NCBI GenBank assembly: GCA_041650715.1
Contig: JBAZKQ010000003.1
Coordinates: 1 to 60,397 of the forward strand
From: Patescibacteria group bacterium
Lineage (GTDB): Bacteria; Patescibacteriota; Patescibacteriia; Patescibacteriales; UBA12465
DNA: 60,397 nucleotides
Direction: 5' to 3'
The position numbers and the translations under genes are program-made. The notes beneath the pieces are model-generated. The model was not told the DNA's origin. It made no database searches and saw only the letters and a list, made by a program, of their open reading frames with translations. The first letter of the stretch is position 1. The number at the start of each line of letters is the position of its first letter. This document shows, in pieces, positions 1,556 through 37,302 of the stretch.

Positions 1556-2110
1556 ATGCGTATAAAATTTCATCGTGTCGAAAGAAAAGAAGAACCTACT
1601 TTTCGGTCTAACCACCAGATTAAAGTGCCGGAGGTTTTTGTGATAGACGAAACTAATGAAGCACTGGGCGTCATGACGATCGAAGAGGCAATCGCGAAAG
1701 CGCAAGAAGCCGACCTGGACTTGGTCGAGGTAAATCCTAAGGCCAATCCGCCGGTCGTAAAAATTGTGAATCTTGGACAATTAAAATATGAAAGAGAAAA
1801 ATTGGCCCATAAGCAGAAAATGCAGCAGAAAAAAGTAGAGACTAAGAATATCCGCTTAACTTTCCGCATTAGTGACCATGACCAAGAAATGCGAGTTGTG
1901 CAGGCGGAAAAGTTCTTAGCGAAGGAAAACAAGATTAAGGTAGAGTTAATTTTACGCGGTCGCGAAAGACAATATCCGCAGAAGGCTGCCGAAATTGTGC
2001 GTAATTTTACAGCAAAATTGCAGGCCAAACCAGGTTTGGCGGTTGAGATTGAACAGCCCTTGACAAATCAAGGAGGAAGATTTACTATTATATTGATCAA
2101 TAAAAAATAA
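1556..2110 (+). CDS. infC: Translation initiation factor IF-3
   Basis: N-domain VIDETNEALGVMTIEEAIAKAQEADLDLVEV and C-domain KNIRLTFRISDHD...LILRGRE. Conserved infC-rpmI-rplT order. Confidence 0.95.
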   Translation: MRIKFHRVERKEEPTFRSNHQIKVPEVFVIDETNEALGVMTIEEAIAKAQEADLDLVEVNPKANPPVVKIVNLGQLKYEREKLAHKQKMQQKKVETKNIRLTFRISDHDQEMRVVQAEKFLAKENKIKVELILRGRERQYPQKAAEIVRNFTAKLQAKPGLAVEIEQPLTNQGGRFTIILINKK

Positions 2111-2158
2111 AAACCCGTTAAATTCAGGTGTTTGCCTGATTTTTTAATCTGGAAATAT

Positions 2159-2356
2159 ATGTCAAAAATAAAGACCCATAAAGCCACGGTCAAACGTTTC
2201 AAAAAAACGGCCACTAATAAACTGATGCAGCGTAAAGGCGGGCAGGATCATTTTAATTCTCGTGATACCGGTAACGCTACTCGTAAAAAACGCCTTGATA
2301 TCAAGACGAGTAAGACCATTACCAAAACTATTCACATGTTAACCCCATATAATTAA
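2159..2356 (+). CDS. rpmI: 50S ribosomal protein L35
   Basis: MSKIKTHKATVKRFKKTATNKLMQRKGGQDHFN; sits between infC and rplT. Start taken at the internal ATG at 2159. Confidence 0.9.
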   Translation: MSKIKTHKATVKRFKKTATNKLMQRKGGQDHFNSRDTGNATRKKRLDIKTSKTITKTIHMLTPYN

Positions 2357-2377
2357 TCATTATTTGAAATTGAACAT

Positions 2378-2725
2378 ATGCCAAGAGTAAAAAGAGGAAT
2401 GACCCATGTAAAAAAGAGACGGAAATTGCTTAAAGCCGTTAAAGGTTATAAATGGGGTCGTAAAAAATTAGTTAAACTTGCCAAGACTGCTCGGACTAAA
2501 GCCGGAGCGCATGCTTATGTTGATCGACGCAAAAAGAAAAGAACTATGCGTGGTTTATGGCAAATTAAGATTAATGCCTTCGTGCGCGAGTACGACTTGT
2601 CTTATTCTCGTTTTATAAATTTGCTAAAAATAAATAAAATTGAAGTTGATCGGAAGATTTTAGCCGACTTGGCCGTATCTAATAAGGAGACTTTGGCGGC
2701 CATCATCAACAAGATTAAGAAATAA
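2378..2725 (+). CDS. rplT: 50S ribosomal protein L20
   Basis: MPRVKRGMTHVKKRRKLLKAVKGYKWGRKK... is a typical L20 N-terminus. Confidence 0.95.
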   Translation: MPRVKRGMTHVKKRRKLLKAVKGYKWGRKKLVKLAKTARTKAGAHAYVDRRKKKRTMRGLWQIKINAFVREYDLSYSRFINLLKINKIEVDRKILADLAVSNKETLAAIINKIKK

Positions 2726-2726
2726 T

Positions 2727-2945
2727 ATGATGTTCTGGATTAAAATTATCCAAGTTATCGTCGCTATTCTCTTAATGGTGGCAATTTTAATGCAAAATAG
2801 GGGCACCGGTCTAGGCGGCGTTTTTGGCGGCTCGGGCGGTGTTTATCTTACTAAGCGTGGCTTAGAAAAGAAACTTTTTTTAGCTACTATTATTTTAGCG
2901 GCTATCTTCATTTTATTGTCTCTCGGCGTGTTTATCAAAGCTTAG
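2727..2945 (+). CDS. secG: Preprotein translocase subunit SecG
   Basis: 72 aa, two TM segments, LMQNRGTGLGGVFGGSGG glycine-rich loop. Confidence 0.8.
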   Translation: MMFWIKIIQVIVAILLMVAILMQNRGTGLGGVFGGSGGVYLTKRGLEKKLFLATIILAAIFILLSLGVFIKA

Positions 2946-2982
2946 AGCAACTCTCAGCACGTGAGTAATTTATAAAATTACT

Positions 2983-4758
2983 GTGATCTCACTAAAAAAG
3001 AAAACAAAGTTAAATGCAAAAAGGGCGAGTCAGGTCTTGTCTTTTTTTGGTTTAGCCAAAAAAAATAAATTAAATCAAGCTGAGATTGATCGTAAATTAG
3101 TCTATACCCTGTCGGCTCGGAAAATACCCAATGGTGGCCAAATCAGACATCTTAATAAATTTTTAAATCCGAAAGAAAACTTGATAATTAAAATTTGCGC
3201 TCTTTTTATTCTGGTTAATGCTGTTTATTTGGGAATTACTTTTTTTCAAAAACATTTACAGTATGCCCCGGTTGCCGGCGGTGAATATATAGAGGGTATA
3301 GTGGGGTACCCTAAAATTGTTAATCCGCTTTACGCGGTAAATCGTGATGTCGATAGCGACCTCAGCAGTCTTGTCTATTCCAGCCTTTTTAAATATGATC
3401 AAAGCGGTGCCTTGGTTAATGACTTGGCAGAGACAGTATCCATCAGTAATGATAAAGAGTATACGATTAAGATTAAGGACGGTGCGGTTTGGCAAAATGG
3501 CGATAAGTTAACGGTTGATGATATTATCTTTACCATTAGTGCGATTCAAAATGCGGACTACCATTCTCCGCTGCGCGCGTCTTTAAGCAGCGTTGAAACT
3601 GCCAAGATAGATGAGCAAACTTTAAAAATTACGCTGGGGGCTCCCTATGCACCTTTTCTTGAGGTCTTAACTTTCGGTATTCTTCCGAAAAATATTTGGG
3701 AAAATGTTAATCCCAGTTCAGTGGCTTCTTCCGATATGAATTTAAAGCCGATCGGGTCGGGACAGTATAAGTTTAAATCATTCCTCAAAAATAAAGACGG
3801 TGATATCAAAGAGTACAATTTGGTATTTAATAATTCTTATTACGGACGAAAACCATTTATCAGTGCCGTAAAATTTAAATTTTTTAACGATTACACAGAA
3901 GCGACCAAAGCCTTAAATGATAATCAAATTGATGGCTTGGGTTATTTGCCTTTTGATGAGCGCAAAGATTTGGTGGCGAAAAATGCATTAACGTTTAATG
4001 AATTATTGCGCCCACAAATCGTTGCCCTTTTCTTTAATAGTGGTAATGATAAGGCGCTCGCGGATAAAACAGTTCGTGTTTCCTTGGCGCAAGCGATAGA
4101 TAAAGATCAAATCATTAAAGATGTTTTTTCCGATGTCTATAAGAGAGCGGATGGACCGATTTTGTCTACCAGCTATGCCTACGACGATGCAATCGCCAAG
4201 TATGCTTATTCGCCACTTGAAGCCGAAACAAATATCAAAAATAAATTGGCCTCGACTACCCTCACGGTGATTGATTCGGGTACAAACGTGGCTGTGGCGG
4301 AAGCCGTTAAAGCGTATTGGGAAAAAATTGGCGTCGCCGTTGAAATTAAAGTAGTCCCTGGAGAACAGGCAGCCGATATTATTAAAAATCGCGCTTTCGA
4401 AATTCTTCTTTACGGCGAATCAGTCGGCGGCGATCCGGATGTTTATGCTTTTTGGCACTCCTCTCAGATCGGCGCTAAAGGCTTGAATCTCGCCAGCTAT
4501 AATAATCAGGAGGTTGATAAGTTACTCGCGGATGCGCGCGCCACAACCGATATTGCAACTCGCATTGAAAAATATAAAAAATTTCAGGAAGATGTCGTGA
4601 ACGACGTTCCCGCTATCTTTCTATATTCACCAACCTATACTTACGTGCAGAGCAAAAAACTCAAAGGCTTTAATGGTTCAATGGTAATTGAACCGGACAA
4701 TCGCTTCGCAAGTATTGCCGATTGGTATTTAAAGACCAGTAAAAAATTAGTGTGGTAA
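2983..4758 (+). CDS. ABC-type substrate-binding protein, family 5 (peptide/nickel type), N-terminally membrane-anchored
   Basis: 591 aa with an N-terminal TM segment. SBP_bac_5-like stretches (LFKYDQSGALVNDLAE, YTIKIKDGAVWQNGDKLTVDDIIFT). GTG start. Confidence 0.75.
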   Translation: MISLKKKTKLNAKRASQVLSFFGLAKKNKLNQAEIDRKLVYTLSARKIPNGGQIRHLNKFLNPKENLIIKICALFILVNAVYLGITFFQKHLQYAPVAGGEYIEGIVGYPKIVNPLYAVNRDVDSDLSSLVYSSLFKYDQSGALVNDLAETVSISNDKEYTIKIKDGAVWQNGDKLTVDDIIFTISAIQNADYHSPLRASLSSVETAKIDEQTLKITLGAPYAPFLEVLTFGILPKNIWENVNPSSVASSDMNLKPIGSGQYKFKSFLKNKDGDIKEYNLVFNNSYYGRKPFISAVKFKFFNDYTEATKALNDNQIDGLGYLPFDERKDLVAKNALTFNELLRPQIVALFFNSGNDKALADKTVRVSLAQAIDKDQIIKDVFSDVYKRADGPILSTSYAYDDAIAKYAYSPLEAETNIKNKLASTTLTVIDSGTNVAVAEAVKAYWEKIGVAVEIKVVPGEQAADIIKNRAFEILLYGESVGGDPDVYAFWHSSQIGAKGLNLASYNNQEVDKLLADARATTDIATRIEKYKKFQEDVVNDVPAIFLYSPTYTYVQSKKLKGFNGSMVIEPDNRFASIADWYLKTSKKLVW

Positions 4759-8301: not shown

Positions 8302-8373
8302 GTCTTCGTAGTTCAACGGATAGAACAAGAACCTCCTAAGTTCTAGATCCAGGTTCAATTCCTGGCGAGGACA
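8302..8373 (+). tRNA. tRNA-Arg (anticodon CCT)
   Basis: 72-nt cloverleaf by hand: acceptor GTCTTCG/CGAGGAC, anticodon loop CTCCTAA, T-arm CCAGG-TTCAATT-CCTGG. No encoded CCA. Confidence 0.85.
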
Positions 8374-8468: not shown

Positions 8469-8496
8469 TTGACATACACGCTGATTTAGCTATAAT
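8469..8496 (+). promoter_or_regulatory. Consensus promoter upstream of tRNA-Ala
   Basis: TTGACA (8469-8474), 16-nt spacer, TATAAT (8491-8496). Confidence 0.6.
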
Positions 8497-8564
8497 CTTA
8501 GGGTAGTTTCAGTATGCTAATGTTTAAAGAGAGCCAATTGTTCCTTAAGGAACAATTTGTATAA

Positions 8565-8638
8565 GGGCCATTAGCTCAGTTGGCTAGAGCGCTTCCATGG
8601 CATGGAAGAGGTCAAGGGTTCAAGTCCCTTATGGTCCA
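8565..8638 (+). tRNA. tRNA-Ala (anticodon GGC)
   Basis: 74-nt cloverleaf: acceptor GGGCCAT/ATGGTCC with the G3:U70 alanine identity pair, anticodon loop ATGGCAT, T-arm AAGGG-TTCAAGT-CCCTT. Confidence 0.9.
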
Positions 8639-8677
8639 CAATATAAAAGCCCCACAAAGTGGGGCTTTTATATTGTG
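8637..8677. terminator. Long-stem hairpin terminator overlapping the tRNA-Ala 3' end
   Basis: Perfect 19-bp stem CACAATATAAAAGCCCCAC / GTGGGGCTTTTATATTGTG with an AAA loop. Confidence 0.75.
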
Positions 8678-8681
8678 CTTT

Positions 8682-8847
8682 GGGGACTTGAACTGGTTGG
8701 AAGCGAGATGCGAGTCGAGTCGGAAGACGAGACGAGCTATCGAGCGTCGGACAACCCGCCGGGGGCGGGTTGGACGCCAACCCTGGACGAGCGAAGCCGC
8801 CGCGCTTCTGGCGGCGGCAAGCGAGAGAGTCCCTTATGGTCCACAAT
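8682..8847 (+). repeat. tRNA-Ala-derived cassette A: inverted T-arm copy, GC-rich core, direct copy of tRNA 3' end
   Basis: GGGACTTGAAC (8683-8693) is the reverse complement of the tRNA T-loop/stem. 8828-8847 is an exact 20-nt copy of tRNA 8623-8642. The core between them is GC-rich with nested hairpins and GCGAG repeats. Confidence 0.7.
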
Positions 8848-8883
8848 TTAAAAGACCTCACCTGCGTGAGGTCTTTTAAATTG
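8844..8883. terminator. Second long-stem hairpin terminator (paralog of 8637-8677)
   Basis: Perfect 18-bp stem CAATTTAAAAGACCTCAC / GTGAGGTCTTTTAAATTG with a CTGC loop. Confidence 0.7.
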
Positions 8884-8894
8884 ATTGATTTGAA

Positions 8895-9015
8895 ATAAGG
8901 GACTTGAATGCCGGAGGCGATGCGCACTTGTGCGCCGCCGAGGCCGGGTCGGGGCGCTTAGTGAGCGCAGTTCGCGATTTTAGCGAACAAGCGAGACTTA
9001 GCGACCGTGACCAAG
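8895..9015 (+). repeat. tRNA-Ala-derived cassette B: inverted T-arm copy plus second GC-rich core
   Basis: ATAAGGGACTTGAA (8895-8908) is the reverse complement of tRNA 8619-8632. It is followed by GC-rich hairpins (TGCGCA-CTTG-TGCGC, GCGC-TTAGTGA-GCGC, GTTCGC-GATTTTA-GCGAAC) ending in CAAGCGAGA, as in core A. Confidence 0.65.
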
Positions 9016-9057
9016 TTACTCTATCTATTAAAAAAGCCCGATATTTTAAATCGAGCT

Positions 9058-14288: not shown

Positions 14289-14993
14289 ATGATTTCAATT
14301 ATAATCCCAACTTTAAACGAGGAACATTATTTACCCTTGCTGTTAGAGGCAATCAAAAAACAAAAATTTTCCGACTATGAGATTATTGTTTCCGACGGCG
14401 GCTCAAAAGATAACACCCAAGCGATTGCGCGCGACTATGGTTGTCGTTTTGTTAGCGACACGGAACACCATCATCCCGCGTGGCAAAGAAATAATGGCGC
14501 GGCAGTCGCCCAGGGAGACGTGTTGGTTTTTTTGGATGCCGATACAATGTTACAAGCCGATTTCTTGGAAAAAGTGATCGCGGAATTTTATGAGCGAAAA
14601 TTGAGTGGCGCTGGTTTTTACATAAAATTTAATCCTAATCGTCCCGCTTATAATATTTACTCGTTTTTATATAATATTTTTTGCTACCCCCGACAATTTT
14701 TTGCGCCCGCCTCAATCGGAGCCGGTATTGTTGCGCGCCGTGAAGCGCACGAAGCAATCAAGGGCTTTGATACTGGGCTTTTCTTGGCGGAGGATTATGA
14801 TTACTGCTATCGCTTATCCCGCTTGGGAAAATTTCGGATGATAAAATCTTGCCGACTGCTATATTCATCGCGGCGGCTTCTAAAAGAGGGCGCGTTGAAA
14901 GTGGGTTTAAAATGGGGACTGATGGCCGTCTATACGTTATTTAATTTTCGTATTAAAAAAAGTATTGTAAAATATGATTTTGGAAAATTTTAA
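14289..14993 (+). CDS. Glycosyltransferase family 2
   Basis: ISIIIPTLNEE...VSDGGSKDNT...FLDADT (DxD). Confidence 0.85.
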   Translation: MISIIIPTLNEEHYLPLLLEAIKKQKFSDYEIIVSDGGSKDNTQAIARDYGCRFVSDTEHHHPAWQRNNGAAVAQGDVLVFLDADTMLQADFLEKVIAEFYERKLSGAGFYIKFNPNRPAYNIYSFLYNIFCYPRQFFAPASIGAGIVARREAHEAIKGFDTGLFLAEDYDYCYRLSRLGKFRMIKSCRLLYSSRRLLKEGALKVGLKWGLMAVYTLFNFRIKKSIVKYDFGKF

Positions 14994-15396
14994 AATAAAA
15001 AAGTTCCGCGCGGAACCGACGGAAATTTTACGCTTGTTTTTGGCCGTCGTTTTTTTGTCGGCTGGGATTTTTCGAATTTTTAATCCTGGTGCGGCGACGG
15101 AAGAATTCTCCGCTTTGCGTTTGCCCTTATTTTTAGCACCTTTAATGATTATATTTGAAATTATCGCCGGTTTATTACTGCTTTTTAATCGTTTCACGAA
15201 ACAAGTTTATTATGGCTTGATCATGTTTATGATTATCGTCCTGGGCTGGTCCTTTATACTTAGCGGCGGAACTTTAATCAGAGAGGCCGGCGAACTATTC
15301 GTTTTTAATTTAAATCCGACTGATTTCTTTTTGCATTTTGTATTTTTAATCATAGCTATAGTTTTATTAATTAGGATGAAACAAAGTAGAGGGTAA
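14974..15396 (+). CDS. DoxX-family membrane protein
   Basis: 140 aa, 4 TM segments, LRLFLAVVFLSAGIFRIFNP is a DoxX-like N-terminus. Confidence 0.55.
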   Translation: MILENFKIKKFRAEPTEILRLFLAVVFLSAGIFRIFNPGAATEEFSALRLPLFLAPLMIIFEIIAGLLLLFNRFTKQVYYGLIMFMIIVLGWSFILSGGTLIREAGELFVFNLNPTDFFLHFVFLIIAIVLLIRMKQSRG

Positions 15397-15493
15397 GGGG
15401 AATTCCGCCTCACTCGCTCGCCGTCTGTCCGATTCCCCTTCATAGTCTTGTCAAAATAAAAAGAACAAGCTTTCGCTTGCCCTTTTTATTTTG
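15391..15493 (-). repeat. tRNA-Gly-derived cassette: long-stem terminator, inverted T-arm copy, GC-rich core, direct copy of tRNA 3' end
   Basis: Hairpin 15452-15493 (19-bp stem, 2 G-U pairs) abuts the tRNA 3' end. 15427-15440 is an exact 14-nt inverted copy of tRNA 15501-15514. 15391-15403 is an exact 13-nt direct copy of 15497-15509. The GC-rich core has GCGAG repeats. Confidence 0.65.
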
Positions 15494-15565
15494 AGCGGGT
15501 AAGGGGAATCGGACCCCTCTCATAAGGTTGGAAACCTTAGGTAATAACCACTATACGATACCCGC
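15494..15565 (-). tRNA. tRNA-Gly (anticodon TCC)
   Basis: 72-nt cloverleaf: acceptor GCGGGTA/TACCCGC, anticodon loop TTTCCAA, T-arm AGGGG-TCCGATT-CCCCT. Confidence 0.85.
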
Positions 15566-37215: not shown

Positions 37216-37302
37216 GGGCGGATGGTGAAATTGGTAGACACGCAAGCTTGAGGGGCTTGTGGCCGCAAGGCCGTGGAGGTTCAAATCCTCTTTCGCCCAC
37301 CA
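37216..37302 (+). tRNA. tRNA-Leu (anticodon GAG), CCA encoded
   Basis: 87-nt class II cloverleaf: acceptor GGGCGGA/TTCGCCC, anticodon loop TTGAGGG, 15-nt variable arm, ends ACCA. Confidence 0.85.

Follow-up and report, generated by a model that had tools for sequence, protein, structure and literature searches.

Structured cassettes with tRNA-matched arms at the 3′ ends of transfer RNA genes in Patescibacteria

The DNA analyzed here is a stretch of 60,397 nucleotides (nt) from a Patescibacteria group bacterium (assembly GCA_041650715.1, contig JBAZKQ010000003.1, positions 1 to 60,397), referred to below as the window, in which a transfer RNA (tRNA) gene for alanine, tRNA-Ala(GGC), is followed by two small GC-rich cassettes bounded by partial copies of the tRNA itself. 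Patescibacteria (the candidate phyla radiation, CPR) have tiny genomes, and to our knowledge few mobile elements or non-coding RNAs have been described from them. The tRNA-Ala(GGC) gene lies at 8565–8639 on the + strand (ARAGORN; Rfam tRNA model, 64.8 bits) and has no encoded CCA; the cassettes are anchored in its T-loop and 3′ end. A σ70-type promoter (TTGACA-16-TATAAT, 12/12 consensus matches) at 8469–8496 on the same strand is the sole promoter-like site upstream of them.

One layout is found twice 3′ of the gene, all parts on the + strand: the tRNA 3′ end, a hairpin, an inverted T-arm, a GC-rich core and a direct copy of the tRNA 3′ end. In the first unit (A), the tRNA segment termed X (AGTCCCTTATGGTCCACAAT, 8623–8642) runs from A58 to the 3′ end plus four trailer bases (CAAT), without CCA. 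Hairpin 1 (8637–8677), the first part of unit A, is a 19-bp perfect stem (8637–8655/8659–8677) with an AAA loop and a U-rich tail; it is terminator-like, its GCCCCAC/GTGGGGC stem being followed by TTTTATATT. The inverted arm X′ of unit A (GGGACTTGAAC, 8683–8693, 11 nt) is the reverse complement of tRNA positions 53–63 and forms the 5′ strand of a closing helix, P1. Core A (8694–8827) is a 134-nt GC-rich multi-helix domain, with a GGTTGG/CCAACC helix around two hairpins and a further hairpin on its 3′ side. The second copy of X (8828–8847) is at once the 3′ strand of P1 in unit A and the start of unit B, which continues with hairpin 2 (8844–8883; an 18-bp perfect stem, 8844–8861/8866–8883, with the CTGC loop typical of B units, also called terminator-like by the scan), X′ (ATAAGGGACTTGAA, 8895–8908, 14 nt; the reverse complement of 8619–8632, tRNA positions 54–67), core B (8909–9011), a 103-nt conserved domain with helices P2, P3, and P4, and a third copy of X truncated to CAAGT (9012–9016), at a place where homologues carry the full tRNA 3′ end. 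The GC-rich stem and T-run of an intrinsic terminator are present in the window hairpins, which explains the hairpins only and not the arms or cores.

The original prediction, made by a model from the sequence alone, had listed the tRNA, the repeat, the hairpins, the inverted T-arms and the GC-rich cores, and all of them are present where it placed them: the 20-nt direct copy is exact (8623–8642 = 8828–8847) and, when extended to 30 nt (ending at 8652 and 8857), is 93% identical; both stems are perfectly paired; both inverted arms have the positions and lengths given above; and GC content is 0.63–0.67 over the cores vs. 0.40 over the whole window. It had also described one four-part unit occurring twice, which holds for the layout but not for the unit, because cores A and B are two sequence families with their own homologues. 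Its end for core B, at CAAGCGAGA, was placed too early: the core continues through CTTAGCGACCGTGAC to 9011, and the direct tRNA copy is shortened from there. The CGAG/GCGAG repeats that had drawn its attention exist, and are explained as strands of helices interrupted by tandem G·A mismatches. By our own arithmetic, an exact 20-nt direct repeat is expected by chance ~2e-7 times in a 650-nt region and a 14-nt inverted repeat ~8e-4 times, so that a chance origin of the repeats is excluded. Since the copy of X includes trailer bases and lacks CCA, it is the gene that was copied and not the mature tRNA, and the duplication arose at the DNA level. Two other explanations of the repeats were rejected: a primer-binding site for mature tRNA, because the copies match the gene trailer and have no CCA complement, and a hidden or convergent minus-strand tRNA remnant, because the 5′ T-stem strand is absent and ARAGORN finds no such tRNA.

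BLASTN of the two cores, which the original prediction had proposed, gave homologues of each in other genomes and contigs (comparison loci are designated by L-numbers below). Core A is 85% identical to the core at the equivalent place in L045, and its relatives lie at tRNA-Ala in L139, L161, and L179, at tRNA-Gly in L154 and at tRNA-Asp in L174; seven homologues were aligned. Core B is 87% identical over 122 nt to L010 (Falkowbacteria GW2011_GWF2_43_32), a BLAST result independent of the covariance model described next, and is also found in L089 and, at tRNA-Arg, in L022. A single scan with a B-specific pattern gave 63 metagenome contigs in addition to these three reference genomes (L010, L022, L089), and the named hosts of core B are all Patescibacteria. 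A covariance model built from 52 unique copies of B, the window copy being included in the seed alignment, scores 8893–9028 of the window at 126.5 bits (E 6e-30), with the flanking inverted and direct T-arm copies present, and recovers just three further copies in the other 99 sources searched, these sources being the reference-genome tRNA-Ala loci. The strong score together with only three further reference copies indicates that the B family is real but rare.

A third family, E, is represented in the window by a remnant at tRNA-Gly(TCC) (gene at 15493–15565) on the − strand. This small locus (15390–15440) comprises X′ (15427–15440), an internally deleted core (15404–15426) and a copy of X from A58 (15390–15403). 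The core retains the first ~16 and last ~10 bases of family E (~150 nt), full-length members of which lie at tRNA-Ala(TGC) in L141 and L163 and match the remnant at both ends; the related layout that the original prediction had reported here is therefore confirmed, with the qualification that the core is of another family and has lost its interior. The stop codon of a DoxX-family open reading frame (ORF; 14974–15396, +) falls within the decayed X copy of this remnant (15390–15403), so that a cassette remnant now furnishes the end of a protein-coding gene. Nothing similar to the cassette layout was found in the 3′ flanks of the remaining eight tRNA genes of the window.

Occupancy is patchy and variable among related genomes. 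The genes around the tRNA-Ala locus encode RNase J, a diacylglycerol kinase-like protein (DAGK), bactofilin, a SemiSWEET-like membrane protein, thioredoxin reductase (TrxB), and a DUF6938 protein; the order RNase J–DAGK–bactofilin–tRNA-Arg–tRNA-Ala–TrxB is kept in dozens of genomes at ~70% nucleotide identity, and a scan of reference genomes with the tRNA-Ala 3′ end assigns the window to Patescibacteria, the closest syntenic loci belonging to “Candidatus Falkowbacteria” and relatives. Most genomes with the conserved RNase J–TrxB synteny have no unit of any kind, only a terminator 3′ of tRNA-Ala. Other partial copies of the tRNA-Ala 3′ end lie 90–160 nt past the tRNA in L042, L066, and L007 and in L033, L060, and L100, none with an A, B, or E core; one kind consists of a short GC-rich piece (…GGCGTGGGGCTTCCGCCCCTTCA) followed by the tRNA-Ala 3′ end and another of …GGTGTGAGGCTCGCCTCTTCA followed by the same end, and these may be additional cassette types or pseudo-tRNAs.

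The arms follow the tRNA beside which a unit lies. B units follow at least 14 tRNA species (Ala-GGC, Ala-TGC, Ser-GGA, Ser-TGA, Ser-CGA, Val-TAC, Pro-GGG, Pro-TGG, Arg-CCT, Leu-CAA, Leu-TAG, Asn, Gln, and Asp); the left arm X′ is the reverse complement of local tRNA positions ~54–67, ending …TCGAA or …TTGAA, and the right arm X reproduces the local tRNA from C56 to one or two bases beyond its 3′ end. A and E cores have their left junction at G53′ and their right junction at A58, and the A homologues at tRNA-Gly and tRNA-Asp carry an X′ complementary to their own T-arm. The start of X is thus fixed at a T-loop position, and the copy takes in trailer bases without CCA. Change is much more rapid in the arms than in the cores: the nearest relative of the window's core B (97% identity) lies at tRNA-Val with Val arms (L129), the cores of L167 (tRNA-Pro) and L169 (tRNA-Ala-TGC) are 99% identical despite different arms, and for 19 of 52 B cores the nearest-neighbor core carries clearly different arms. 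With the same modules at many different tRNAs, the units look like mobile cassettes.

The interior of the units is a conserved fold. X′ pairs with the following X as P1 and closes the core into a multi-helix structure on the tRNA-sense strand. In the RNAalifold consensus for B, P1 from the two arms is accompanied by P2 (CCGG/CCGG), which bears a variable hairpin, by a long helix P3 formed from two conserved motifs, CTTAG(Y)GA and (R)CTTAGCGA, with tandem G·A, and by the variable hairpin P4. Covariation was computed with the arms left out, on the alignment of 52 unique homologues: 96.6% of cells in the helices outside the arms are paired vs. 90.5% in shuffles, eleven pairs are changed on both sides (at Y98:R136, for example, 32 copies have U-A and 17 have C-G), covariation as high as that observed came up in 0 of 500 shuffles, and slid registers fall short as well. 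Compensatory changes affect 21 of 48 predicted pairs of core A across seven copies, so the covariation check suggested by the original prediction gives such changes in both families. One-sided changes are mainly G·U wobbles, and tandem G·A motifs occur in the folds. All 52 B copies are more stable on the tRNA-sense strand, with a mean gain of 10 kcal/mol; in the window, core A has an RNA minimum free energy of −72.2 kcal/mol (z −4.4) on the + strand vs. −60.2 kcal/mol (z −2.4) on the − strand, and core B has RNA z-scores of −3.7 on the + strand and −2.6 on its complement. The two strands differ little when DNA energy parameters are used.

The arrangement of several units at one locus bears on how they arrived. 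The CTGC loop is found on the hairpin that precedes X′ in 31 of 48 B units, whereas the hairpins after the distal X are diverse save where another unit follows; the tRNA-proximal X and its hairpin thus look element-borne, and the distal X and its terminator look native. Units are ordered tRNA–A–B in the window and tRNA–B–A in L139, L161, and L179. Arrays of a complete unit and a second unit cut within its core at varied points occur in L128, L156, L175, and L149, and arrays in which the second unit is cut just after X′ in L010 and L130; the distal X is shortened to 5–10 nt at further loci, as in the window, and E-type sequence is nested within the distal X of B units in L173 and L178. At least 12 units have no intact upstream tRNA and start with a decayed tRNA 3′ piece. 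Homology among these begins, in the readable groups, at or slightly before the start of the T-loop, the sequence further upstream is unrelated, and the units sit in unrelated contexts. At orthologous tRNA-Ala loci, B units have related hairpins with compensatory changes and are 80–90% conserved vs. 68–74% for the flanking genes, a moderate excess.

At one of the loci without an adjacent tRNA (L184), the B unit (~3730–3900) lies beside two ORFs at 1714–3475, of 278 aa, with a DPPY motif typical of N4/N6 DNA methyltransferases, and of 306 aa, which resemble a restriction-modification pair; an unannotatable 415-aa ORF lies between tRNA-Asn and the B unit.

The reading preferred here, with a probability of roughly 50%, is that these small (~130–210 nt), protein-less cassettes of Patescibacteria form a non-autonomous family whose anchor is the T-loop of tRNA genes and which would spread as a folded single strand handled in trans. 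A unit has four parts: X, which copies the tRNA from C56 (type B) or A58 (types A and E) of its T-loop and stops a few bases beyond the 3′ end; a hairpin, usually terminator-like and with the conserved CTGC loop in B units; X′, which is the T-loop, the 3′ T-stem strand and two to three acceptor bases in reverse complement; and the conserved GC-rich core. Insertion into the T-loop would restore an intact tRNA with the unit's own hairpin and displace the native 3′ end and terminator downstream, the displaced piece being the distal X. The folded single strand would matter for propagation, either as read-through or co-transcribed RNA from the tRNA promoter or as single-stranded DNA, and a trans-acting factor would move or copy the units, leading to accumulation at tRNA genes, stacking, arrays, and decay. 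Mobility itself, the single-stranded intermediate and the direction of insertion are all putative. A more ambitious formulation is offered tentatively: that the cassettes are a new class of protein-less mobile element, or a mobile tRNA-like RNA gene, in which a structured core is re-addressed to tRNA genes by T-loop and 3′-end arms copied from the target, and which, self- or target-templated, would enter at the universally conserved T-loop, rebuild the invaded tRNA, and spread among Patescibacteria via a folded single-stranded RNA or DNA intermediate on which a host enzyme or a novel one would act. Among the possibilities that the original prediction had raised, a miniature hairpin element targeting the T-arm comes closest, given the tRNA-matched arms, the patchy orthologous loci, the varied stacking order and the copies away from intact tRNAs.

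Several points weigh against mobile cassettes of this kind. The case for mobility is drawn from comparative patterns, and the account leaves unexplained how X′ gets to match a new tRNA. Truncated units can result from ordinary deletion. The terminator-like hairpins and the lack of a promoter of the units' own argue against abundant RNA, and the small asymmetry calculated with DNA parameters argues against a clear preference for single-stranded DNA. The compensated hairpins of B units at orthologous tRNA-Ala loci, and their only moderately higher conservation than that of the flanking genes, also fit a useful RNA that was passed on vertically over long times and lost in places.

This last point leads to the main rival, which appears rather unlikely: the units would be a family of host-useful, tRNA-like structured non-coding RNA genes that are not mobile but vertically inherited and often lost. 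Transcription would start with the tRNA, by read-through or as part of a tRNA operon; the arms would pair as a tRNA-like T-stem/acceptor helix by which tRNA-processing enzymes could trim and stabilize the RNA; the core, in the position of the T-loop, would bind a protein or ligand; and copies at different tRNAs would stem from duplication and concerted evolution with the neighboring tRNA. Several features of the fold are as expected of an RNA: the strands differ greatly in stability under RNA parameters and little under DNA parameters, one-sided changes mostly leave wobble pairs, and tandem G·A motifs recur. A minority “extended” subtype also speaks for it. Its units begin with a separate terminator or lack one; next come a 5′ segment that complements the 3′ acceptor strand, a CUGC-looped GC hairpin, the T-stem 5′ strand and T-loop complement, the core, and X, and the whole folds as an acceptor stem and T-stem three-way junction with the core in the place of the T-loop. 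In L022, L149, and L167 the T-run is absent between tRNA and unit, and the unit of L167 sits between tRNA-Pro and tRNA-Ala(CGC), 11 nt from the latter, and must therefore be co-transcribed; in view of these three loci, one of them inside a tRNA operon, the functional structured 3′ trailer that the original prediction had considered is a possible reading. The consensus promoter directly 5′ of tRNA-Ala, and the compensated hairpins and only moderate excess of conservation of B units at orthologous tRNA-Ala loci, fit the same view. Most units in the data set, however, lie behind a strong terminator-like hairpin, as in the window, and have no promoter of their own; the promoter scan found no promoter-like site within 8640–9020 on the + strand. 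Most orthologous loci have no unit, units are rare in reference genomes, and many copies are truncated or decayed, including unit B of the window and the tRNA-Gly remnant. Cores that are 97–99% identical with different arms are hard to obtain by slow co-evolution, and units without a tRNA occur in unrelated contexts. The mobile-cassette account and an RNA-gene account are not mutually exclusive, and the data support both a history of DNA-level insertion at the T-loop and selection for the fold of the tRNA-sense strand.

It is improbable that the units are instead scars of integrase-mediated insertions, that is, attL/attR remnants of larger islands or prophages whose interior has been lost, similar to cis-mobilizable elements (CIMEs). 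The direct repeats span T-loop to tRNA 3′ end and are stacked in tandem, and a repeat of this extent reportedly marks integrases whose crossover point lies in the T-loop; the flanking direct repeat of a tRNA-integrating element is present in the window (8623–8642 and 8828–8847) and likewise in homologues. To this extent the serial site-specific insertion envisaged by the original prediction fits part of the evidence, with T-loop-to-trailer repeats and an apparently element-borne proximal hairpin. The cores, however, cannot be taken for decayed ends of islands, since they form structured families that are conserved, covary, are specific to one strand and stay constant over at least 14 tRNA species. 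The inverted arm X′, moreover, is foreign to a classical att scar, neither the scanned window ORFs nor the neighborhoods of the units yielded an integrase gene or a fragment of one, and the cassettes have no similarity to sequences in phage and plasmid collections (BLAST) or in viral contigs (two pattern scans). A guide RNA of an RNA-guided DNA system (cf. IS110 bridge RNAs, TnpB/IscB omega RNAs, and the tRNA-homing crRNAs of type V-K CRISPR-associated transposons), with the core as scaffold and the arms as guides against both strands of the tRNA gene, is very hard to credit: a constant structured scaffold does carry ~12–20-nt target-following segments, one sense and one antisense to the tRNA gene, but these pair with each other and so are not free as guides, no recombinase, TnpB/IscB, or Cas gene adjoins any locus, and no known scaffold is matched in Rfam.

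Searches for coding content, partner proteins, and known RNA families were negative within the following bounds. Rfam 15 matches only tRNA in the window region at gathering and permissive thresholds (best core match P9, 26 bits vs. a gathering score of 43), gives no match at E ≤ 1 for the extended-subtype unit, and, in the surroundings of 12 further units, finds two tRNA genes only, neither adjoining a unit; the original prediction had recognized no RNA class here and had taken the ORFs of the region for compositional artefacts, and the four ORFs over the cassettes, three of which overlap the tRNA, indeed have no Pfam match. The scanned window ORFs, all but three large and two small ones, are housekeeping genes and an array of type IV secretion pilin-like paralogues; they include no recombinase, transposase, or reverse transcriptase. 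All-against-all clustering of 433 neighboring ORFs from ~67 loci gave no associated protein, the clusters only reflecting synteny around particular tRNAs. Full-text literature searches found no description of such elements, and the cassette family is apparently undescribed.

Membership in known element types was assessed in the same material. A genomic island, prophage, or CIME would bring an integrase, a recognizable remnant, or cargo, and none was found among the ORFs of the region, the scanned window ORFs, or recurrent neighbors. Integron cassettes or attC sites are not supported because the arms are tRNA-dependent T-arm sequences with no RYYYAAC…GTTRRRY and the scanned window ORFs include no integrase, the resemblance being confined to the broad notion of a single strand folded as an imperfect hairpin; a retron or other reverse transcriptase-associated RNA because neither these ORFs nor recurrent neighbors include a reverse transcriptase; and an IS110 bridge RNA, a TnpB/IscB omega RNA, or a homing guide of a CRISPR-transposon because there is no such neighbor gene and the arms are mutually paired as P1. 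At the level of the junctions, integron attC, IS91 target (GAAC/CAAG), serine-recombinase 2-bp stagger, and hairpin-telomere models each fit some junctions, and none fits both core types. As for miniature inverted-repeat transposable elements (MITEs), inverted arms are present, but they are target-derived and tRNA-specific, and the direct repeat of ~20 nt is the tRNA 3′ end.

A number of further observations concern the window and its host. Only one of the ten window tRNA genes, tRNA-Leu(GAG) at 37216–37302, encodes the 3′ CCA, so the host must depend on a CCA-adding enzyme and endonucleolytic 3′ trimming, which bears on the processing of any tRNA-like unit RNA. A perfect palindrome, AATTGTTCCTTAAGGAACAATT, lies at 8536–8557 (core 8539–8554), between the tRNA-Ala promoter and the tRNA 5′ end; its motif TGTTCCTTNAGGAACA occurs once in the 60-kb window and at 28 fetched Patescibacteria loci, immediately 5′ of tRNA-Ala in the inspected cases and at times twice, and the palindrome is a candidate operator or leader hairpin. 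In an independent assembly of the same organism (Logan SRR8542065; L001, L002), contigs end at window position 8353 and resume at 8941; the break thus lies somewhere from the tRNA-Arg gene to core B, near tRNA-Ala and its cassettes, and is presumably due to the repeated segments of X plus hairpin. The 5′ end of a bacterial 16S ribosomal RNA gene occupies 1–345 (− strand), the gene extending beyond the window start, and the pilin-like genes form a minus-strand run of small paralogues with the type IV secretion system pilin domain PF18895 (22245–24803 and 29293–29754).

The units make up a new conserved, structured non-coding family of Patescibacteria that is found at many tRNA genes and whose arms vary with the tRNA. 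Should the units be mobile, the universal T-loop would be targeted without disabling the tRNA, which would point to a recombination or copying activity not yet known; if they are expressed RNAs, they would provide a new tRNA-like scaffold that bears a conserved domain instead of a T-loop. For annotation, the cassettes account for GC-rich “orphan” stretches and spurious ORFs beside tRNAs and for breaks in metagenome contigs at such places.

The known systems nearest to the cassettes each resemble them in part. Like integrative elements that recombine in the T-loop and CIMEs, they have the tRNA T-loop and 3′ end as target, regenerate the tRNA, are flanked by a direct repeat, and stack at one tRNA; unlike them, they are 130–210 nt long with no integrase or cargo, have a conserved covarying interior and an extra inverted copy of the T-arm, and have the same core at 14 or more tRNA species while the arms vary with the tRNA. 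Integron attC and CTX-phi attP(+) sites share with the cassettes inverted target-like segments ~100 nt apart that pair on one strand and so reproduce the target duplex, a strand-specific fold, and arrays beside a fixed primary site; the cassettes differ in having no RYYYAAC/GTTRRRY core sites, no IntI found, no Xer link, no genes, and, in place of a variable spacer, a loop that is a conserved multi-helix domain, and their use as a single strand is conjectural.

MITEs, repetitive extragenic palindromic doublets forming hairpins (REPINs) with RAYT, and the palindrome-associated elements derived from IS200/IS605 are, like the cassettes, small, non-coding, hairpin-rich, intergenic near terminators, and, on the preferred reading of the cassettes, dependent on functions in trans. 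The cassettes, unlike these, are tied to tRNA 3′ ends, have terminal repeats that are target-derived and locus-specific, and appear to have a low copy number per genome, with no RAYT or TnpA identified. The tRNA-like domain of transfer-messenger RNA (tmRNA), the bacterial Y RNA-like YrlA, and viral tRNA-like structures share with the extended subtype an acceptor-like stem on a T-stem, and the subtype, as tRNA-like RNAs are, could be handled by tRNA-processing enzymes; the cassettes differ from all of them in that the core replaces the T-loop, the hallmark of tRNA mimicry, most copies have no 5′ acceptor strand, and Rfam gives no match. The cassettes share single features with each of the closest known systems yet appear to fall outside the definition of each, and there is a substantial chance that their mechanism is new.

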